Below are positions 51,365-64,000 of a stretch of 64,000 nt of DNA, in pieces. Origin of the DNA: Kiritimatiellia bacterium (GTDB lineage Bacteria; Verrucomicrobiota; Kiritimatiellia; CAIVKH01). Made by a program: the position numbers and the translations under genes. Each line of letters opens with the position of its first letter. Positions within the stretch are counted from its first letter, which is position 1. The stretch lies in the NCBI GenBank assembly GCA_035327665.1, contig DAOLCW010000002.1, forward strand, positions 3,237-67,236. The letters are read 5' to 3'. The notes below the pieces were generated by a model. The model was not told where the DNA came from. It ran no database searches and saw nothing but the letters and a program-made list of their open reading frames with translations.

Positions 51365-51450
51365 GCCCGGGTGGTGAAATGGCAGACACAAGGGACTTAA
51401 AATCCCTTGACCGCAAGGTCGTGCGGGTTCGAGTCCCGCCCCGGGCACCA
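51365..51450 (+). tRNA. tRNA-Leu (anticodon UAA)
   Basis: 7-bp acceptor GCCCGGG/CCCGGGC, D-arm GTG-AAATGGCAGA-CAC, anticodon arm AGGGA-CTTAAAA-TCCCT, 15-nt variable arm, T-arm GCGGG-TTCGAGT-CCCGC, ACCA 3' end. Confidence 0.85.
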
Positions 51451-56077: not shown

Positions 56078-56968
56078 TTGGCCATGATCGATTGGATCTG
56101 GCGGCAGATCGGCGTGTCCCTCCCTCCCGACTGGGAAATGCTACAATTCTCCCGCGAATCGAAGCGCGGCCGATGCGCCTTCGCTGACCGACGCCGCTTT
56201 CGCTTCGAGCTCAACTGGCATGCTTTTGCGGCGGAACCCGACTTCGACCGGATGATGACGGACTACGCATCCACCCTCGATGCGAATTGGCACGACATCC
56301 AATCCCTCCGGTGTGCCGGATGGCCCGGACTCACCGGTCGAAGAGAACATGAAATCGTCTCCCGTTTCGGACGTTATTTCCCCCTGATTGGCGTTCTCGT
56401 GGAAGCTGTGGTCATCCATCCCGAGACCCGCGATTCCGAACTCGAATCCCGGATTTTGGGTTCCATACGTCCCGTACCGGTTGATCCTGAAGGATATCAA
56501 CGCTGGCGAACCTTCGGCATGGACCTCAAGGTCCCCGCATCTTTTTCCTTCGCCGAGTCACAAGTCCAACCCGCCCGGTGCGGTTTGCTCTTTCAGTCCG
56601 ACAAAGGACCCGACCGATGGATCTTTCGCCGATATGGCATGCTTAAATCCTGGTTGAAAACACCCCTGCGCGAATGGCTGGAATCCCAAACCGACCCCGC
56701 CGTTCGCTACCGTAGGCTTGAAAGTGGCCTCATCCACACAATCCCCGTTGAGCGCGTTCATGGTGAATGGCGACCTCGTGGCCTACTCTTGAAAAAGGGA
56801 CTGTATGCCGCCTCGGCATGGATCGACCCACGCGATCAGCGCCTCTATCATGTGCAATGCATCACCTCAAAATCCAACCACGCCTTTCACCCTCGCGAAC
56901 GTGCGGAGAAGATCATGGCATCCTGCCCGGAGTTCTTCTCCCTTCCCAAACCCTCGATCGGCAAATGA
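56078..56968 (+). CDS. hypothetical protein, first gene of 6-gene operon (TTG 56078 or ATG 56084)
   Basis: 296-aa ORF, C-ending codon usage, no recognisable motif; stop overlaps next gene start (ATGA). Confidence 0.45.
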   Translation: MAMIDWIWRQIGVSLPPDWEMLQFSRESKRGRCAFADRRRFRFELNWHAFAAEPDFDRMMTDYASTLDANWHDIQSLRCAGWPGLTGRREHEIVSRFGRYFPLIGVLVEAVVIHPETRDSELESRILGSIRPVPVDPEGYQRWRTFGMDLKVPASFSFAESQVQPARCGLLFQSDKGPDRWIFRRYGMLKSWLKTPLREWLESQTDPAVRYRRLESGLIHTIPVERVHGEWRPRGLLLKKGLYAASAWIDPRDQRLYHVQCITSKSNHAFHPRERAEKIMASCPEFFSLPKPSIGK

Positions 56969-57360
56969 AATCCGAACGCACCACCACGTCTGAATTGCCC
57001 GCCTTATGGCAAGATCTGCTTTCCGCCGTTCTCCTTCGCAATCAAGCCGCTGAAGTCCTCGACGAAGCCCCCGACGGCTCGGTCATGCTCGCCGTCCCGA
57101 CCCGCAAGCCCGGCTTCCTGATCCCCCCCTTTTCATGGATCATCCGCCCGCCTCGGGAGCGCCTTACCCACCTCGACCCTATCGGGGCATCCCTGTGGCG
57201 AGCCTGCGATGGACGGGCCACTGTGGAGTCCCTTGTGGAAAAGTTTGCCATTCAGCACAGTTTAACTTTTCATGAGAGCCGTGTTTCTGTTACCTCCTAT
57301 GTCACGTCCTTGCTCCGCCGCGGTGTTCTTGCTGTGGCGGTAGGCACAGGTCAACCTTGA
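56965..57360 (+). CDS. PqqD-family / RiPP-recognition-element (RRE)-like protein
   Basis: ORF track start 56767 trimmed to ATG 56965; ...LDPIGASLWRACDGRATVESLVEKFAIQHSLTFHESRVSVTSYVTSLLRRGVL matches PqqD pattern (LN.tga.iW.lcDG.rtv.eI...l...y.......a..Dv..fl..L...gL). Confidence 0.6.
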   Translation: MKSERTTTSELPALWQDLLSAVLLRNQAAEVLDEAPDGSVMLAVPTRKPGFLIPPFSWIIRPPRERLTHLDPIGASLWRACDGRATVESLVEKFAIQHSLTFHESRVSVTSYVTSLLRRGVLAVAVGTGQP

Positions 57361-57415
57361 AAACCAAGCCTCGGAAAAAGCCCATCCGAATGAATACCAT
57401 CACGAGAATCAAGAT

Positions 57416-59506
57416 GTGACCTTCCGAGCCGTCATTCTGGGACTGCTGGGAGTTGCCTTCGTTAACTCCTACACCTACTTCAACGACTGGATCATGCGCC
57501 AGACCATGTTCGTGGGCAATTTCATGCCCATTTCCGTCTATGGCCTGCTTGTGATCTTCCTTGCTTTCCTCTACCCCCTCCTTTCCAAAATTAGCCGCGC
57601 CCTCCTGCTCCGCCGTTCCGAACTCGCGGTCATTCTCGTCCTCGTCCTCGCCTCCTGCGCGATCCCCGGCTCCAACCTCCTCCGCCTCTTTACCCCCGCC
57701 CTTGTCATGCCCCACCGTTTCGAAAAAACCGAACCGGGCTGGCAAAACCAACGCATCATGGATCTCGTCCCCGACGGCGCCTTTTCCATCGGAGCCGGCA
57801 AGACCGTCCCCTACTCCATGCTCGTCGACGTCTCCCGCGACGAAGAACTCGTACTCAGCGGCTTCACCCGCGGCCTCAGCGAAGCCTCCGACCGCCTCGC
57901 CTTCTCCGAGGTGCCATGGGACGCCTGGCAACCCGCCCTCATCTTCTGGCTCCCCATCATTCTCAGTTTGTGGATCGCCCTCGTCTGCCTTGCCCTCGTC
58001 GTCCATCGACAGTGGGCCGACCACGAGCACCTGCCCTACCCCATCGTCACCTTCACCAAATCCCTCCTCCCCGAGGAAAATGGCGACCGCGGTCCCATCC
58101 TCAGCAGCAAACTCTTCTGGCTCGCCCTCGGCGCCGTCTTCGCCATTCACGGCTACAACTACCTCAACCTCTGGTTCTCCAATTACCTGTTTGGCCAAAT
58201 TCCCCTCGGCATCGACTTCTCCTCCCTCTCCAACCTTTCCGACACCTTTGAAAAAGGCGGCGGACGCCAGCTCCTCGAAAAATTCACCCTCTACTTTACC
58301 GTGGTCGCCGTCGCCTACTTCCTCCCCAAGGAAGTCTCCCTCTCCCTCGGCATCGGCCCCTTTATCTGGATCTTCATCGCCGGCATGTTCGCCACCTACG
58401 GCGTCGGCGTCGGCGGCTGGCAGGGAAGCTGGCCGTTTGGCCTCACCATGGACGCCATGATGATCATGGGCGCCTACTTCGGCATGCTCGTTGTCCTCCT
58501 TTACACCGGCCGCCAATACTATTCCGCCGTGTTCCGCCGGGCCTTCGGCATCCCCTCCCGTGAACCCGTGGAAAGCTCCGCCATCTGGGGCGCCCGCTTC
58601 TTCATGATCGGCATGGCCTTCTTCACCGTGTACTCCGCCCTCGTCGCCGGACTCGACTGGCCCATCGCCCTCCTCTTCGGCCTCGGCCTCGTCGCTGTCT
58701 ACCTTGTCATGGCTCGCCTCCTCGCCGAAACCGGACTCTTCTTCATCGTCACCACCGGCACCCCCGCCACCCTCATCTGGGCCTTCTTCGGAGCCCGCGC
58801 CCTCGGCCCCGAAATCCTCTTCCTCATGTTCATGTTCTGCATCGTGCTCTTCTACGACACCCGCGAAGCCCTCATGCCCTATGTCGTCAACGGCCTCAAA
58901 CTCGCCGACGACTGCAAAGCCAAGGTGGGCCGCACCGCCTTCTTCGTCATCGTCGCCATTTTCGTCGGCCTCGGCGTCGGACTTCCCGTGACCCTCTACT
59001 TCCAATACTCCAACGGCGTCGATGTCTCCCTCTGGAAAATCGAGCAGGCCAAGCGCCCCTTCAACGAGACCATCAGCATCATGCAACGACTCGATGCCCA
59101 GGGCCAACTGGAGGAAGCCGGTCAGGTCACCGGAATCAAGCGCTTCCTCGAAGCTTCCCCCCATCGCAACGGCCTCATCGCCTTCTTCGCCGCCGCCGGG
59201 CTCGTCATCGGATTTTCCTTCCTCCGCCTCCGCTTCACCAACTGGCCGCTCCACCCCGTCATGTTCCTCGTCTGGTCCACCTATGCCGGCGACTCCTTCG
59301 CCCAGTCCTTCCTCGTCGGATGGTTGATCAAGCTCCTCATCACCAAATATGGCGGCATGGGCATCTACCAGAAATGCAAGCCCATCATGTTCGGACTCAT
59401 CGCCGGGGAAATGCTTGGCGGCGTCGTCCCCATGGTCGTCAGCCTCATCTACTACATCACCACCGGCGGCGAGCTGCCCAAACCCTTTGCCATCATGCCC
59501 GGATAA
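57416..59506 (+). CDS. large polytopic integral membrane protein, unknown family (GTG start)
   Basis: 696 aa, more than 12 predicted hydrophobic helices, several W/G/Y-rich loops. Confidence 0.55.
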   Translation: MTFRAVILGLLGVAFVNSYTYFNDWIMRQTMFVGNFMPISVYGLLVIFLAFLYPLLSKISRALLLRRSELAVILVLVLASCAIPGSNLLRLFTPALVMPHRFEKTEPGWQNQRIMDLVPDGAFSIGAGKTVPYSMLVDVSRDEELVLSGFTRGLSEASDRLAFSEVPWDAWQPALIFWLPIILSLWIALVCLALVVHRQWADHEHLPYPIVTFTKSLLPEENGDRGPILSSKLFWLALGAVFAIHGYNYLNLWFSNYLFGQIPLGIDFSSLSNLSDTFEKGGGRQLLEKFTLYFTVVAVAYFLPKEVSLSLGIGPFIWIFIAGMFATYGVGVGGWQGSWPFGLTMDAMMIMGAYFGMLVVLLYTGRQYYSAVFRRAFGIPSREPVESSAIWGARFFMIGMAFFTVYSALVAGLDWPIALLFGLGLVAVYLVMARLLAETGLFFIVTTGTPATLIWAFFGARALGPEILFLMFMFCIVLFYDTREALMPYVVNGLKLADDCKAKVGRTAFFVIVAIFVGLGVGLPVTLYFQYSNGVDVSLWKIEQAKRPFNETISIMQRLDAQGQLEEAGQVTGIKRFLEASPHRNGLIAFFAAAGLVIGFSFLRLRFTNWPLHPVMFLVWSTYAGDSFAQSFLVGWLIKLLITKYGGMGIYQKCKPIMFGLIAGEMLGGVVPMVVSLIYYITTGGELPKPFAIMPG

Positions 59507-59508
59507 CC

Positions 59509-60981
59509 ATGAAGCCCATTGATGTCAAAGAACAACCCATCCTCAGCGCCGGGCGCGTCTTCCAAATCGCCCTCTCCGGCGTCAAATACCGCCTCTTTCG
59601 CGCCGCCGTCACCGTCGCCGTCATCACCGTGGCCATGGCCTTCCTCATGAACATCCTCACCGAGAGCCTCATCAAACGGGCCGTCGCCGACTCCGTCCGC
59701 GAGCAAATCGAGGATCTCCGCACCGTCGACGCCTGGATCGCCAAACTTTCCATCCCTCAGACCACCGAGGAAATCCTCGAACAGATCGCTTCCGTCTCCC
59801 AATCCGAACTCGACCTCCACGAACTCGTCCACATGAGCGGAAAGCCCTCCGAAGCCCTCCTCGCCGCCGAACCCGTCGCCCGCGACGCCCTCTTCTATCT
59901 CCGCTTCTTCAACGACATGAACTTTGGCCGCCGCCGCGTCCTCGTCGGTAGCGCCGAAGCCACCCGGATCTTCGACCACCTCCAAACCCCCGCCGCCTGG
60001 CAAACCTTTACCGCCAACCTCGCCGACATGCACACCATCCGCTTCCCTGCCGCCGTGGAGGACTTCGAAGCCTTCCTCGCCGCCTGGCCTGACCTTCGCT
60101 CCCTCGTCGCCTCCGTTCGCGACGGCCAGGCCCGGGCCATCCGACACGTCCAGCGAAACCTCGGCGACACCCCGCTCGCTCAAGCCCTCCGCGCCGCCGA
60201 CGGCCCCTTCGGCGAAGTCCTCCGCGAGGCAGGCTTCGCCCTCTCCGAACGTCAGGCCGCCACCCTCTCCACCGAAGTCGAACGCCTCGAAGCCATCCAG
60301 CGCATCGAAGGCACCATTAACAACCCCGGCATCCGCCAGGCCGTTGCCGCCGACCGCGATGTCCTCCCCGGCGACGTCTCCATGCAACTCATCTGGGGAC
60401 TCCTTCGCCAACGCGACCGCAGCGAGTGGTTCTACGACCTCATGGCCGAGCATGGCCTCAACGTCGATCAACTTTCCCCCCAACGCATCGAGGAACTCGC
60501 CGCCCATCAAGGCCACGTTCGCCTCCTCAAAATCGCCGAACGCCAGACCACCGGGGCTGGCGGCGGCTTCATGGACATCGGACCCCGCATGACCTGGCTC
60601 GCCATGGTCTCCATGCTCGTCTGCGCCGTCGGCATCACCAACGCCATGCTTATGTCCGTCACCGAACGCTTCCGCGAAATCGCCACCCTGAAATGCCTCG
60701 GCGCCCTCGATGGCTTCATCATGGTCGTCTTCCTCATCGAAGCCGGCATCCTCGGCATCGTCGGCGGCATCGGCGGGGCCATCATCGGACTCCTCCTCGG
60801 CTTCGTCCGCATGCTCTTCACCTTCCAAAGCCTCGCCTTCAACGCCTTCCCCCTCACCCAACTCCTATACGCCGGACTCATCTCCATCGGTCTCGGCATG
60901 ATCCTCGCCGCCGTCGCCGCCGTGTACCCGTCCATGCGGGCCGCCCGGCTCGCTCCCATGGAGGCCATGCGCATCGAATGA
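59509..60981 (+). CDS. FtsX-family (type VII ABC / MacB-LolC-like) permease with single N-terminal TM, ~340-aa extracytoplasmic alpha-helical domain, then 3-TM FtsX domain
   Basis: ORF track start 59320 trimmed to ATG 59509; C-terminus ...MSVTERFREIATLKCLGALDGFI...YPSMRAARLAPMEAMRIE is canonical FtsX. Confidence 0.75.
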   Translation: MKPIDVKEQPILSAGRVFQIALSGVKYRLFRAAVTVAVITVAMAFLMNILTESLIKRAVADSVREQIEDLRTVDAWIAKLSIPQTTEEILEQIASVSQSELDLHELVHMSGKPSEALLAAEPVARDALFYLRFFNDMNFGRRRVLVGSAEATRIFDHLQTPAAWQTFTANLADMHTIRFPAAVEDFEAFLAAWPDLRSLVASVRDGQARAIRHVQRNLGDTPLAQALRAADGPFGEVLREAGFALSERQAATLSTEVERLEAIQRIEGTINNPGIRQAVAADRDVLPGDVSMQLIWGLLRQRDRSEWFYDLMAEHGLNVDQLSPQRIEELAAHQGHVRLLKIAERQTTGAGGGFMDIGPRMTWLAMVSMLVCAVGITNAMLMSVTERFREIATLKCLGALDGFIMVVFLIEAGILGIVGGIGGAIIGLLLGFVRMLFTFQSLAFNAFPLTQLLYAGLISIGLGMILAAVAAVYPSMRAARLAPMEAMRIE

Positions 60982-61745
60982 CCGCCACCCTTCCAGCCTC
61001 CCCGACCATCGATCCGGCCACCTCCCAGCGCGTGATCATCCGCACCGTCGGCATGAAGAAGATCTACCGCCGCGGCGAGGAAATCACCCATGCCCTTCGC
61101 GGCGTCGATGTCGAAATCTACACCGGCGAATTCATCACCGTCATGGGCCCCTCCGGCTCCGGAAAGAGTACCTTCTTCAACATGATCGGCGCTCTCGACA
61201 GCCCCTCCGAAGGCCGCGTCTTCATCGATGAAGTCGATGTCGCCCAACTGACCGCCGAGGAACTCGCCTTCCTCCGGTGCCGCAAGATCGGCTACATCTT
61301 CCAGTCCTACAACCTCATCCAATACATGACCGCCCTTGAAAACGTCACCACCCCCATGGCCTTCGGCGGCGTCTCCCCCGACGTCGCCCGCGGACGCGGC
61401 ATGGATCTGCTCGACCTCGTCGGCCTCAAGCCCCGCTGGTTCCACCGCCCCATCGAAATGTCCGGCGGCCAGCAGCAGCGCGTCGCCATCGCCCGCGCCC
61501 TTGCCAACCAACCCTCCATCCTCCTTTGCGACGAGCCCACCGCCAACCTCGACCACCGCACCGGCGACGAAATCCTCGATATTCTCCAGAAGCTCAACAA
61601 GGAACGCGGCGTGACCATCATTTGCGCAACCCATGACCACCGCATGATGAACATCTGCGACCGCCTCATGTGGATACGCGACGGCGGCATCGAACGCATC
61701 GCCCGCCGCGACGAAGTTCAAGTGGAGGTCGGCAGCATTGAGTGA
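60978..61745 (+). CDS. ABC transporter ATP-binding protein, MacB/LolD/FtsE-type
   Basis: ATGA overlap with FtsX gene; Walker A GPSGSGKST, Q-loop, signature MSGGQQQRVAIARAL, Walker B ILLCDEPTANLD, H-loop ATHD. Confidence 0.85.
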   Translation: MTATLPASPTIDPATSQRVIIRTVGMKKIYRRGEEITHALRGVDVEIYTGEFITVMGPSGSGKSTFFNMIGALDSPSEGRVFIDEVDVAQLTAEELAFLRCRKIGYIFQSYNLIQYMTALENVTTPMAFGGVSPDVARGRGMDLLDLVGLKPRWFHRPIEMSGGQQQRVAIARALANQPSILLCDEPTANLDHRTGDEILDILQKLNKERGVTIICATHDHRMMNICDRLMWIRDGGIERIARRDEVQVEVGSIE

Positions 61746-64000
61746 CCTCCTCTCCAACCTCACCGCCGCCCGCCTGTTCCTCGTCGCCGGGATCTGGCTT
61801 GCCGCCGTCGCCCCCGCATCCGCCTCCCTCCGCGCGGATGTCGAAGCCCTCACCCGTCATCCCCACCGCTTAAGCGGCACCCCCGAATACGCCGCCGCCG
61901 CCGATCACGTCGAGCAGCGCCTTCGCGACATCGGAATCACCAACCTCGTCGTTCAGGAATTCCCCTCCGTCCAAAACAAAATCCTCCGGGCTGAACTTGT
62001 CGCCGGCGAAACCACCTTCCCCCTCGTCCCCGCCCGACCCAACGGCATCATCCCCCCCACCACCCCGCCCGCAGGCATCACCGGCGAACTCATCGACCTC
62101 GGCGACGCCACCGACGACGACCTCAACCGCATCAACGTCCATGGCCGCATCGTCGTCATGTCCTACAACGCCCACATGCAGTGGTACAAAGCCTTCCGCC
62201 TCGGCGCCCGCGCCGTCATCTTCACCGATGGCCACGAAGGCGACTCCCTCCACCAACACTACCTCCGCGTCAATGCCAACCTCCCCCGCTATTACTACGA
62301 GGGCGACCGCGCCAGCCTCCCCTTCGGCCAGACCGTAACCCTCCATTCCGAAGTCACCTGGCAACGAACCACCGGCCGCAACATCATCGCCTTCCTTCCC
62401 GGAACCGACCCCGTCTTCGACCTCGGTCGCGAAGAAGTGGTCATCATCGCCGCCAACCTCGACACCTTCGGCGACTTCCCCGCCGCCTCCCCCGGCGCCC
62501 GCTCCGCCGCCAACGTCGCCGGCCTCCTCCACCTTGCCGAAACCTTCAAGAACAATCCCCCCCGCCGCCACATCGTCCTCGCCTTCTTCGACAACCAAGC
62601 CCGCTCCCATGCCGGAGCCATCGCCTTCTACTGGGCCCTCGAAAACCGCATCCCCGAAGCCACCATCGCCGCCCGCCTCGAATCCTGGCAGGCCGAAGTC
62701 GAATTCCTCGCCAACATCAGCGCCATCCTCGCCCAATCCAACCCCCTCGAGCACCTCGCCATGCCCGGCGGACGCCGCCTCGACGACCGCCTCAACGACA
62801 AGGCCCGCGACCTCGCCCTCGACCTTCGCGGACGCCTCATGCAAATGCGCGAAGCCTACCTCGCCCACGCCGAGGACCACCCCGATGACGAAACCCGCCG
62901 CCAGCAGCTCCGCCTCGACATCGAAACCGCCGAAGCCGAATTCGACCTCTGGAACGACCTGCGCCGGGCCCTTCGCCGGGCCCGCGGCATCCCTCCCGAA
63001 CTCCAGCCCCAGCTCGACCGCGTCATCCAATCCGTCCGCGACGACGTCGCCCGCCGCCAGCAGGAACTCCGCGACACCGAATCCATGCTCCTTTCCTCCA
63101 AGCGCATCTTTGACCTCCTCGGCGATCGCTGGATCACCCTCCACACCTCGCTTATCCTCGGCGACAGCACCGCCCGCTGGGGCGTCATCATCGGCGGCGA
63201 CTCGGAAATCCGCAACGCCGACCTCGACCAGCCCGGCCTCTACGGCCGCGTCCAGCAAAGTTTCCTTCGCGCCTTCGACGCCCAAGTCCGGGCCGGCCAG
63301 CCCGCCCGCAATTTCGAACGGGCCACCGTCGACGCCACCCTCACCCAGCCCCGCCTCATCTGGGCCGCCCGCGGCCTCATCCACAGCGGTGAAGTCTCCG
63401 GCCGCTACGGCATCTACAACATCGTCCTCGGCACCACCCACGAAACCCTCCCTCGCGAAGGCACCCCCGCCGACACCCTCGACCAGCTCGACCTCGATCG
63501 CATCGAAACCAAAATCCGCGAAATCGGCGGCATCATGACCGCCCTCGGCAACCTCAACGCCCAGGTCGGCGAGGTCGAAGCCGTCGCCGACCAGCGCGGC
63601 CTTTCCCTCCGCCGGGTCATCGGCACCGACTACTCCTACATCAACCCCCGCTTCCGCAACCAGGTCAGCGAAGGCGCCATGGCCATGGGTCGCCATCGCG
63701 GCAGCTCCATCCCCAACCTCCCCGTCCGAAATGCCGTCATTCAGGTCAACATGGTCCAGCCCTGGAACCGCATCATCTGGCCCCACAACAAATACCCCGC
63801 CTTCGATCCCTTCCAGGTCATCATGACCGACCAAAACGGCTCCTACACCATCGGCGGCCTCGCCAAGCAGGACTCATGGCCCCAGCCCACCGCCTTCGCC
63901 GCCCGCTTCAATGCCCGCGGCGTCCCCTTTGAAGTCTCCGACATGCGGTCCGTCAACTCCCTCCGCACCCGCATCAACATGGTCCGGGCCCGCGGCGGCT
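61738..64000 (+). CDS. secreted PA-domain M28-family homologue with degenerate metal-ligand motifs (pseudo-peptidase) and long helical C-terminal region; 3' end beyond window; TTG start tentative
   Basis: not in ORF track (no in-window stop). Signal peptide LFLVAGIWLAAVAPASA; PA-like GRIVVMSYNAHMQWYKAFRLGARAVIFTD; M28 motif positions read AANLDT / GARSAANVAGL / FFDNQ. Confidence 0.6.
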   Translation, partial: MSDLLSNLTAARLFLVAGIWLAAVAPASASLRADVEALTRHPHRLSGTPEYAAAADHVEQRLRDIGITNLVVQEFPSVQNKILRAELVAGETTFPLVPARPNGIIPPTTPPAGITGELIDLGDATDDDLNRINVHGRIVVMSYNAHMQWYKAFRLGARAVIFTDGHEGDSLHQHYLRVNANLPRYYYEGDRASLPFGQTVTLHSEVTWQRTTGRNIIAFLPGTDPVFDLGREEVVIIAANLDTFGDFPAASPGARSAANVAGLLHLAETFKNNPPRRHIVLAFFDNQARSHAGAIAFYWALENRIPEATIAARLESWQAEVEFLANISAILAQSNPLEHLAMPGGRRLDDRLNDKARDLALDLRGRLMQMREAYLAHAEDHPDDETRRQQLRLDIETAEAEFDLWNDLRRALRRARGIPPELQPQLDRVIQSVRDDVARRQQELRDTESMLLSSKRIFDLLGDRWITLHTSLILGDSTARWGVIIGGDSEIRNADLDQPGLYGRVQQSFLRAFDAQVRAGQPARNFERATVDATLTQPRLIWAARGLIHSGEVSGRYGIYNIVLGTTHETLPREGTPADTLDQLDLDRIETKIREIGGIMTALGNLNAQVGEVEAVADQRGLSLRRVIGTDYSYINPRFRNQVSEGAMAMGRHRGSSIPNLPVRNAVIQVNMVQPWNRIIWPHNKYPAFDPFQVIMTDQNGSYTIGGLAKQDSWPQPTAFAARFNARGVPFEVSDMRSVNSLRTRINMVRARGG

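Follow-up and report, generated by a model that had tools for sequence, protein, structure and literature searches.

The last gene in a 64,000-nucleotide stretch of DNA from a Kiritimatiellia bacterium (hereafter the window) raises the question of what a protein related to the PA-domain M28 aminopeptidases, and lacking their catalytic machinery, does in an operon that encodes an FtsX-type permease and an ABC ATPase. The first-pass annotation had taken it for a secreted pseudo-enzyme, transferrin receptor (TfR)-like or EnvC-like, read from a TTG codon and without a stop in the window. The frame stands as described: on the + strand it is open for 754 codons from 61738 up to the window end, and a GGAGG Shine-Dalgarno sequence at 61724–61728, read directly from the sequence 9 nt upstream of the TTG (61738–61740), supports the start (both elements together, 61724–61740, +). 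The start of the gene overlaps the end of the upstream ATPase gene, whose TGA stop lies at 61743–61745. The full C terminus, which had been asked for as a check, was obtained from a second contig (L002) with 100% DNA identity across 2,501 nt, where the whole gene of 1,612 codons is present; the window (61738–64000, +) holds the first 754 of these, or 47% of the 1,612-aa product, P0010, which is 100% identical to the window fragment across the fragment.

The full-length sequence changes the picture of a secreted protein, as the same frame runs on for 858 codons into seven TM helices and an FtsX domain. P0010 starts with a signal peptide, an M28/PA ectodomain whose M28 fold takes up a helical insertion of ~150 aa, and a beta-sandwich; after three TM helices come a permease module of the FtsX/MacB type, complete, and a domain that forms the cytoplasmic tail. 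Hydropathy and models place all seven TM helices C-terminal to the signal peptide. P0010 is a polytopic inner-membrane protein with a periplasmic ectodomain of ~900 aa.

Within the window, where all features lie on the + strand, the protein opens with a signal peptide or signal anchor (aa 1–29, 61738–61824; boundary between ...AVAPASA and SL, hydropathy peak at 13–31, helix 5–22 at low pLDDT), followed by the N-terminal segment of the M28 fold (aa 30–99, 61825–62034), assigned from the model and from profile alignment to 2ek8, beginning at family profile position 23. An inserted PA (protease-associated) domain comes next, its edges approximate (~aa 100–205, 62035–62352; alignment to 2ek8, BSAP and PaAP), and then a central M28 segment with three degenerate motifs (aa 206–305, 62353–62652; profile alignments). 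The PA (apical) domain lies within the protease-like domain, and in a homologue (P0103) it is matched by Pfam PA above threshold. The helical insertion (aa 306–461, 62653–63120), delimited by conservation and by model secondary structure at pLDDT >90, has predicted helices at 310–331, 345–380, 385–414 and 420–461 and carries a conserved WNDLRR motif (W405, N406, R410). In the model it sits between the third motif and a strand at 465–473, i.e. inside the protease-like domain, the second half of the M28 fold (aa 462–600, 63121–63537) containing the conserved residues H469, D476 (63163–63165), H549 (63382–63384) and E552 and a GTPxDT motif. In two models a beta-sandwich starts at aa 630 (aa 630–754 in the window, 63625–64000) and reaches ~aa 810 beyond it, a region that matched no Pfam family, and a helical stalk then leads straight into the membrane. 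The ~350 aa after the motifs, earlier described as strongly helical, are thus predicted to be so at ~306–461 only, 462–600 being the second M28 half and 630–754 beta-rich, and a dimerisation domain like that of TfR does not fit a helical region that the model places inside the M28 fold and not C-terminal to it.

The assignment to the M28/PA homologues itself is borne out by the agreement between the predicted model, which has the M28 alpha/beta aminopeptidase fold, and profile alignments to real M28 enzymes, and the best sequence and structure matches of the ectodomain are PA-domain M28 aminopeptidases. Pfam PF04389 scored 21.6 bits, its gathering threshold being 21.3, over profile positions 1–76 of 193 only, full-length P0010 had no M28 Pfam match at E<=0.1, and some homologues score 31–32 bits. 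A PDB search with the single fragment sequence gave noise only; the M28 structures emerged with the family profile.

Three of the five co-catalytic ligands of the M28 enzymes (His, Asp, Glu, Asp, His) are missing, and the general base with them. In the profile alignments the first His ligand corresponds to N240 (62455–62457) in AANLDT and the bridging Asp to S256 (62503–62505) in GARSAAN, both as first proposed, while the Glu-Glu pair, earlier read as DN, is indeed lost at both positions but in a different register, falling on Q287-A288 (62596–62601) and not on D285-N286, with the general-base Glu replaced by Q287 and the ligand Glu by A288. Profile alignment, which had been suggested as a check, therefore does not restore the canonical His, Asp and Glu-Glu at motifs 1–3. 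The losses extend across the family. An alignment of 115 sequences has Asn (50), Pro (29) or His (14) at position 240, Gly (54), Ser (16), Ala (16), Asn (13) or Pro (10) and never Asp at position 256, Gln in 94 sequences at 287 and Ala in 96 at 288. The Glu-Glu pair occurs in 0/314 aligned family domains; Asp at 256 is confined among them to a divergent sub-clade without the first His, in which the position of the last His is Asp (once Thr) where the second half aligned. As the whole family is without the first His, the bridging Asp and both Glu residues (ligand and general base), the M28 module, judged by its sequence, cannot work the way co-catalytic zinc aminopeptidases canonically do. The fourth and fifth ligands, which fall beyond the helical insertion, may be kept as D476 and H549, in a register that is unproven: one profile alignment sets the ligand Asp on I473, 3 residues off D476, and no M28 structure was retrieved when the C-terminal M28 half was used as a profile by itself, so that these two positions are not fixed at residue level.

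The canonical ligand positions vary while the residues around them stay fixed. D242 (200/202), R255 (185), N259 (198), D285 (188), H291 (171), D476 (173/199) and H549 are all strongly conserved near the former metal site, and such conservation points to a pocket that has not simply decayed and that putatively retains a binding function. Two conserved arginines, R255 and R289, adjoin the former ligand positions. Such residues would suit the binding of an anion or a carboxylate better than that of a metal.

The C-terminal part of P0010 has the features of a Type VII ABC permease. Pfam PF02687 (FtsX) matches residues 1339–1450 with 37.5 bits, and the PDB profile matches of the module are 5xu1, YtrF, MacB and LolF. 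Preceded by the three extra TM helices, the module runs from an amphipathic helix through TM1 and a large Porter/Sabre-type extracytoplasmic domain to TM2–4, forming the four-TM unit with its FtsX domain (TM2–TM4) and major coupling region, and a conserved cytoplasmic domain of ~145 aa closes the protein. NCBIfam scores are far under the equivalog cut-offs of MacB, LolC/E and FtsX. Two genes of the operon encode cognate ATPases of the LolD/MacB/FtsE type, in each of which the Walker A/B, signature and H-loop motifs are intact. A degenerate ATPase as the sign of an obligate heterodimer was considered and rejected, both being canonical, and motif degeneracy consequently gives no clue to one hetero-complex versus two transporters.

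Upstream of the fusion gene, and likewise on the + strand, the window encodes a conserved soluble protein of the cytosol, 296 aa long (56078–56968; syntenic in 40/50 loci) with no Pfam, NCBIfam or PDB match, a small soluble PqqD-like protein of ~131 aa (56965–57360; Pfam PqqD 30.6 bits, no TM segment), a polytopic DUF6785+DUF6784 membrane protein with ~12 TM helices by hydropathy (57416–59506; Pfam 254 and 73 bits), a second FtsX-type permease of ordinary size (~490 aa; 59509–60981, from Pfam FtsX, hydropathy and start refinement) built of TM1, a periplasmic domain of ~300 aa and TM2–4, and the first ATPase (255 aa; 60978–61745), of LolD/MacB/FtsE type with canonical motifs. The fusion gene had been called the terminal gene of the operon, but two conserved genes follow it, for an OPT/YSL-family transporter and then the second ATPase. 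This tightly coupled eight-gene operon is co-linear in 80 genomes, mainly of Kiritimatiellia, Verrucomicrobiota, Lentisphaerota and Planctomycetota, in the usual order DUF6785/6784, 296-aa protein, PqqD-like protein, FtsX permease, ATPase, M28-FtsX protein, OPT-family peptide transporter and second ATPase; the window differs in having DUF6785/6784 between PqqD and the FtsX permease. Synteny by locus is 68/70 for the FtsX permease, 73/79 for the first ATPase, 65/69 for the fused C-terminal module, 65/66 for the OPT transporter, 55/57 for the second ATPase and 45/52 for PqqD. The M28-FtsX family comprises 1,061 cluster representatives at E<=1e-30, and the operon is kept down to about 26–30% identity; one homologue (L003) stands alone, without it. 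A single hit, Verrucomicrobia bacterium LW23 (locus L067), comes from a source other than a MAG. A relationship between the OPT-like partner and the DUF6785 protein was rejected (hhalign probability 0.5%), the two sharing an ERLP[FY]P motif only. A literature search found nothing relevant on DUF6785/DUF6784, on FtsX with M28 and PqqD, or on OPT with FtsX in PVC phyla, and no published study of the M28-FtsX family or of its operon.

An M28/PA fold without catalytic machinery, linked to an FtsX permease and its ATPases, makes a non-proteolytic role the best reading, in keeping with what the first-pass annotation had suggested. We consider it fairly probable that the protein is a Type VII ABC mechanotransducer in which the fused, non-catalytic M28-like periplasmic module serves as a ligand-binding receptor. 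By analogy with other Type VII ABC systems, for which mechanotransmission and periplasmic partners, including the catalytically dead M23 protein EnvC, have been described (PMC5985334, PMC7668044, PMC12646458), ATP binding and hydrolysis by the ATPases would drive mechanotransmission via the FtsX-fold helices to the periplasmic side. The moving part would be the covalently attached, catalytically dead M28/PA module, which as a receptor would capture a ligand, present it or pass it on to a partner, for instance the OPT-family transporter. Judging by the partners PqqD and OPT, this ligand may be a peptide or the terminus of a protein, and on the family names PqqD, OPT and M28/PA it is probably one or more peptides. 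A fuller version can be offered tentatively, as a possible and not an expected arrangement: a previously unrecognised envelope machine, mainly of PVC bacteria, whose heteromeric Type VII ABC motor and nicastrin-like dead-peptidase receptor would capture periplasmic peptides or protein termini and gate their transfer to the OPT transporter and/or DUF6785/6784, with the cytoplasmic PqqD-like and START/KA1-like modules coupling it to the cell interior.

Could the module instead be a remodelled active enzyme, hydrolase or other, with a non-canonical and probably mononuclear metal site made of D285, H291, D476 and H549 (with E552), to which the ABC module feeds substrate as YbbAP feeds TesA? Next to the lost ligands, residues are 85–99% conserved in the 115-sequence alignment, above expectation for a decayed site, D476 and H549 coincide with or adjoin ligand positions 4 and 5, and there is a precedent in a Type VII ABC transporter that works with an active hydrolase of the periplasm (PMC12646458). 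We nevertheless think an enzyme unlikely, given that most members (94/115) have Gln in place of the general-base Glu, that the Glu-Glu pair is never present, that H549 drops to 145/193 in the wider family and that the arginines next to the former ligands would favour an anion over a metal. The bridging Asp, needed by M28 peptidases and by the single-zinc glutaminyl cyclases of the same fold, is moreover absent except in the divergent sub-clade, which is without other ligands.

Similarly improbable, in our estimate, is an EnvC-like regulator, in which the dead M28 module, together with its bundle of helices, would bind no transported ligand and would, upon ATP hydrolysis, switch on or off another enzyme in the periplasm, such as a hydrolase acting on the cell wall or envelope. 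The combination of a Type VII ABC module, a non-catalytic metallopeptidase fold and long antiparallel helices recalls FtsEX-EnvC, and the conserved WNDLRR motif on the surface of the helical insertion would suit such a role; yet the conserved operon encodes no candidate target enzyme, its conserved partners being transporters (OPT, DUF6785/6784) and a PqqD-like protein of peptide-binding type and not hydrolases, and a LytM domain is absent. The first-pass reading, in which an FtsX/ATPase operon ends with a gene for a soluble, secreted pseudo-enzyme resembling TfR or EnvC, has in its favour the signal-peptide-like N terminus and the dead M28/PA fold, but it is refuted by the full-length sequence and keeps practically no chance: the fusion to the C-terminal permease module recurs across the loci compared, two further conserved genes lie downstream and the helices are inserted within the M28 fold.

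To our knowledge, the periplasmic partner is what defines every known Type VII ABC system (MacAB-TolC, LolCDE-LolA, FtsEX-EnvC, YbbAP-TesA). A mechanotransducer with a permease-fused, catalytically dead M28/PA module would add a new kind of partner, one in which the fusion sets the stoichiometry of the M28 module to the permease and makes the path of mechanotransmission physically continuous. The family is large and unstudied, its operon occurs in phyla about whose envelopes little is understood, and it offers a testable functional context for DUF6785 and DUF6784, of unknown function, and for bacterial OPT-family transporters. It would also add a bacterial case to nicastrin, nicalin, GPAA1 and TfR, the M28-like pseudo-peptidases that serve membrane machines as receptors. 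Were the envelope-machine version true, it would be a bacterial counterpart of the eukaryotic substrate-receptor complexes with a dead M28 ectodomain and would for the first time connect Type VII ABC systems functionally with OPT transporters.

Among known proteins, the PA-domain M28 aminopeptidases (2ek8 from Aneurinibacillus, BSAP/YwaD of B. subtilis, PaAP of P. aeruginosa) share the fold and the PA insertion point with the M28-FtsX protein. They are active di-zinc enzymes with the H, D, E, D, H ligands and the Glu-Glu pair, whereas here three of five ligands and the general base are gone, a 150-aa helical module follows the third motif and an ABC permease is joined to the domain. Nicastrin- and nicalin-type receptors also place an M28-like ectodomain without metal ligands on a multi-pass membrane complex, a resemblance in kind for which orthology is not claimed; Pfam Nicastrin exceeds its threshold in one homologue only (P0003, 25.2 versus 25), and the M28-FtsX protein is unrelated to gamma-secretase, the BOS complex and GPI transamidase. 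Unlike nicastrin, nicalin, GPAA1 and TfR, which are eukaryotic and single-pass anchored, it is bacterial and fused to the membrane machine, and where TfR and GCPII have a helical dimerisation domain at the C terminus it has an internal helical module, with a beta-sandwich after the M28 fold.

With MacB, LolCDE and YbbAP-TesA the operon has in common a pair of distinct genes for permeases, like LolC and LolE, and a periplasmic partner, as with TesA for YbbAP (PMC12646458). It differs in the ectodomain of ~900 aa and three extra TM helices that precede the module, in having two different ATPase genes, and in having no gene for an adaptor/TolC, LolA or TesA-like protein.

The earlier likening to EnvC holds as a functional comparison, covering a dead metallopeptidase fold, long helices and an FtsX-type ABC system, and fails as a statement of descent: Pfam, NCBIfam and PDB searches gave no M23/LytM match to the M28-FtsX protein, which without a LytM domain is not a member of the EnvC family. 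Family membership and a TfR-like C-terminal helical domain are ruled out by the absence of LytM and by domain order, respectively. FtsEX-EnvC activates amidases, whereas no amidase-type target lies near the genes described here, which include OPT, DUF6785/6784 and PqqD-like partners. The dead fold is M28/PA (clan MH) in one case and M23/LytM in the other, and it is fused in cis via the stalk and three extra TM helices here, while EnvC is separate and docks on the FtsX periplasmic domain; the modelled insertion helices of 36, 30 and 42 residues might putatively dock on FtsX periplasmic domains as those of EnvC do. Both systems combine an FtsX-fold permease and a LolD/FtsE-type ATPase with a periplasmic effector in which long antiparallel helices accompany a metallopeptidase fold devoid of catalytic residues. 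FtsEX-EnvC, whose partner protein is a catalytically dead M23/LytM one, belongs to the Type VII ABC systems (PMC7668044), and by analogy the logic expected of the M28-FtsX system would be the same, ATP-driven mechanotransmission and not transmembrane transport (PMC7668044).

The frame that opens at TTG 61738 on the plus strand runs without a stop for 754 codons, up to the end of the window, with a GGAGG Shine-Dalgarno sequence 9 nt upstream, which bears out the TTG-start gene proposed in the first-pass annotation. The start overlaps the stop codon of the preceding ABC ATPase gene, suggesting translational coupling. The by-eye assignment of the product to M28 would be shaky on the Pfam and NCBIfam results alone: the Peptidase_M28 match is marginal (21.6 bits against a cut-off of 21.3, residues 215–297, profile positions 1–76 of 193) and an NCBIfam search of the window fragment gave no match. 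A profile of 115 family sequences used against PDB structures matched the PA-domain M28 aminopeptidase 2ek8 (E = 9e-14), BSAP (E = 1e-10) and nicastrin (E = 1e-7), and the AlphaFold model from this alignment is very confident (mean pLDDT 93.6, pTM 0.92), with Foldseek returning PA-M28 enzymes, GCPII and the transferrin receptor at E of ~1e-14 to 1e-16. Together these data confirm that the M28 fold and the inserted PA domain are real, as had been proposed.

Profile alignments to 2ek8, BSAP and PaAP were used to set the register of the metal ligands. The first His ligand (the His of SHHDS) is N240 here, the bridging Asp (the second Asp of GANDDASG) is S256, and the general base and Glu ligand (the EE of GAEENG) are Q287-A288. 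The earlier claim of lost ligands therefore stands, although it had set the EE pair two residues too early (D285-N286). In the 115-sequence alignment position 240 is Asn (50), Pro (29) or His (14), position 256 is Gly (54), Ser (16), Ala (16), Asn (13) or Pro (10) and never Asp, and positions 287 and 288 are Gln (94) and Ala (96). A wider alignment of 314 domains from 264 proteins, divergent cluster representatives included, has the EE pair in 0/314 domains, and Asp at 256 is confined to one divergent sub-clade in which the first His is absent and the last-His position, where the second half aligned, is Asp (once Thr). Judged from these alignments, ligand loss holds family-wide. D476 and H549 would, from topology and motif spacing, be the equivalents of the ligand Asp and His; in one profile alignment the PaAP ligand Asp falls on I473, three residues N-terminal of D476, and a profile of the C-terminal M28 half alone found no M28 structure by sequence. 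While the canonical ligand positions vary, adjoining residues are almost invariant (D242 in 200/202, R255 in 185/202, N259 in 198/202, D285 in 188/202, H291 in 171/202, H469 in 194/200 and D476 in 173/199) and the pocket periphery is conserved, a pattern which indicates that the pocket is under continued selection even though the di-zinc machinery has been lost.

A profile search recovered the full-length protein, P0010 (1,612 aa, from a Kiritimatiellia MAG), which is 100% identical over the window fragment, and the contig L002, 100% identical in DNA to window 61500–64000, carries the complete gene; these supply the full C-terminus that the first-pass annotation had sought. Hydropathy and a second AlphaFold model (residues 600–1612, pLDDT 79, soluble parts confident) delineate a signal peptide (aa 1–29), the M28 N-segment, PA domain and central M28 segment (aa 30–305), a helical insertion with helices 36, 30 and 42 residues long (aa 306–461), the second M28 half (aa 462–600), a beta-sandwich region (aa ~632–810), helices (aa 848–893), a 52-residue helix running into the first TM helix (aa 897–948), three TM helices (aa ~925–1003), a cytoplasmic linker with an amphipathic helix (aa ~1004–1052), FtsX TM1 (aa 1053–1071), a periplasmic core domain (aa 1073–1328), TM2–4 (aa 1337–1444; Pfam FtsX, 37.5 bits) and a conserved cytoplasmic alpha/beta domain (aa 1469–1611). 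With its TM helices and FtsX module the giant protein is not secreted, and the full-length sequence refutes the secreted TfR-like or EnvC-like protein suggested earlier. The M28-like module is instead the ectodomain of a polytopic FtsX/MacB-type ABC permease, on the same side of the membrane as the permease's own periplasmic domain.

The three extra TM helices between ectodomain and FtsX module (P0010 aa 925–1003, beyond the window) rank with the best-conserved stretches of the protein and hold a buried charged pair in FAFALERLLIG, features that suggest a partner contacted within the membrane. The motif WNDLRR (window 62950–62967, aa 405–410), in the middle helix of the insertion, is almost invariant (W in 181/201, R410 in 190/202) and is a candidate interaction surface. 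Databases label family members 'FtsX-like permease family protein', 'M28 family peptidase' or hypothetical. Some assemblies call the gene as two overlapping genes (1,047 aa and a 669-aa FtsX), as for P0003 (L001:10001–15117); the first product departs from the family consensus within the second extra TM helix, and the two-gene call probably reflects a frameshift or misassembly, not a natural split.

After refinement of gene starts, the plus-strand operon in the window consists of tightly coupled genes for a 296-aa soluble protein of no known family (56078–56968), a PqqD-like protein (56965–57360), a DUF6785+DUF6784 membrane protein with ~12 TM helices (57416–59506), an ordinary FtsX permease (59509–60981), a LolD/MacB-type ATPase (ATPase 1, 60978–61745) and the giant M28-FtsX protein (61738 onward). 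The mechanically called ORFs of the ATPase (60426–61745), the small FtsX permease (59320–60981) and the PqqD-like protein run ~65–185 codons 5' of the likely true starts (60978, 59509 and 56965, respectively), which either overlap the preceding gene in an ATGA-type junction or follow it after 2 nt. Coding-strand GC skew over 57000–64000 is strongly negative (-0.25 to -0.38; GC 60–68%), and the antisense 'shadow' ORFs over real genes at 61870–63834 (654 aa), 60507–61853 (448 aa) and 57302–59254 (650 aa) we take as composition artefacts. A tRNA-Leu gene (anticodon TAA) lies upstream (51365–51450, plus strand).

The giant gene had been described as terminal in its operon, but in L002 and all relatives it is followed by genes for a 665–670-aa polytopic protein and a second LolD/MacB-type ATPase (ATPase 2). 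The former belongs to the OPT/YSL oligopeptide-transporter family (precomputed PF03169 in most members; NCBI names 'peptide transporter' or 'OPT/YSL family transporter'), and the two ATPases are paralogues, 51–56% identical, with canonical motifs in both. Directly downstream of the giant gene (L002:5118–6461; L004:14987–16999), the OPT/YSL protein is unusually conserved, with 66–81% identity across the Lentisphaerota, Kiritimatiellia, Verrucomicrobiota and Planctomycetota members listed, far above the 26–65% of the M28-like ectodomain. OPT transporters are not known to work with ABC ATPases.

With each GTDB species sampled by a single genome, a scan recovered 114 relatives, the best 80 of which are from Kiritimatiellia, Verrucomicrobiota (Opitutales included), Lentisphaerota/Victivallales and Planctomycetota, with sporadic matches in Omnitrophota, Sumerlaeia, Fibrobacterota, Armatimonadota, Anaerolineales and Myxococcales. 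When 1.84 billion cluster representatives were searched exhaustively with a profile, 1,061 matched at E<=1e-30, mostly of ~1,600 aa. When the window's proteins were compared by tblastn with the best 80 of the 114, each count being restricted to loci with sufficient flanking sequence, the block proved co-linear: the small FtsX permease is in place in 68/70 loci, ATPase 1 in 73/79, the fused C-terminal permease module in 65/69, the OPT-family transporter in 65/66, ATPase 2 in 55/57, the PqqD-like protein in 45/52, the 296-aa protein in 40/50 and DUF6785 (upstream) in 37/50. The eight-gene operon (DUF6785/6784, 296-aa protein, PqqD-like protein, FtsX permease, ATPase, giant M28-FtsX protein, OPT-family transporter and second ATPase; window 56078–64000 and beyond, L002, L001 and L004–L085) is co-linear in 80 genomes, to ~26–30% identity, with DUF6785/6784 not in first place but between PqqD and the FtsX permease in the window and its closest relatives.

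The sole match not labelled as a MAG among the best 80 loci, Verrucomicrobia bacterium LW23 (L067, QAZA01000001.1), keeps the core genes co-linear, with DUF6785 moved downstream on the opposite strand, and is a possible model for experiments. P0009, a distant relative (30% identity, L086:8001–17926), is without the helical insertion and lies in the order M28-like, FtsX, 655-aa hypothetical, DUF6785/6784, TPR, ExbB, ExbD, ExbD, TonB, with no ATPase within 8 kb; this single locus hints at an uptake role and an older M28-like/FtsX/DUF6785 partnership. P0028 (1,386 aa, L003:10001–14161, on a 5.97-Mb contig) stands alone, with no operon partners except a weak ATPase-like match directly upstream.

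In Type VII ABC systems ATP moves periplasmic domains (mechanotransmission), and each system has a periplasmic partner, MacA-TolC, LolA, EnvC or TesA (PMC5985334; PMC12646458). EnvC has an M23 metallopeptidase fold without catalytic residues, and long antiparallel helices connect it with the periplasmic domains of FtsX (PMC7668044). The giant protein combines a Type VII permease module, with cognate ATPases in the operon, and a covalently attached periplasmic M28/PA module in which the canonical catalytic residues are absent, together with a conserved helical projection and OPT, DUF6785/6784 and PqqD-like partners. By analogy with EnvC and the other partners, the M28/PA module would act as the periplasmic effector of the system, a binding module that the ATPase cycle may move or make more or less accessible. 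The PqqD-like protein's family is peptide-binding, OPT proteins transport oligopeptides and the M28/PA fold recognizes peptide termini, so that a peptide or protein terminus would be the most likely ligand, which could plausibly be passed on to the OPT-family transporter.

We hold with high confidence that the module is the ectodomain of a Type VII ABC permease and is non-canonical, most likely non-catalytic; the specific model of peptide capture and hand-off is tentative, and the explanation as a whole, which combines the two, is more likely than not. A metal site remodelled from D285, H291, D476 and H549 and still active appears improbable, given that the general base and bridging Asp are universally lost. 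The architecture would also allow the module to activate a separate periplasmic enzyme, as EnvC does, but the operon has no conserved gene for such a target and we consider this role unlikely.

We found no paper, in open-access text, on the family, DUF6785/6784 or the gene combination, which should interest specialists in ABC transporters, pseudo-enzymes and PVC envelopes. The giant protein belongs to the Type VII ABC permease superfamily, with every tested feature present, and its M28 part, having failed on the defining catalytic features, is a non-peptidase homologue of M28. It does not belong to the EnvC family because it has no LytM domain, nor does it have the TfR/GCPII architecture, since its helical module lies within the protease-like domain instead of at the C-terminus; the proposed TfR-like dimerisation domain falls with this. 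What survives of the EnvC-like proposal is a functional resemblance to FtsEX-EnvC, and the giant protein resembles in function the eukaryotic dead M28-like receptors nicastrin, nicalin and GPAA1.
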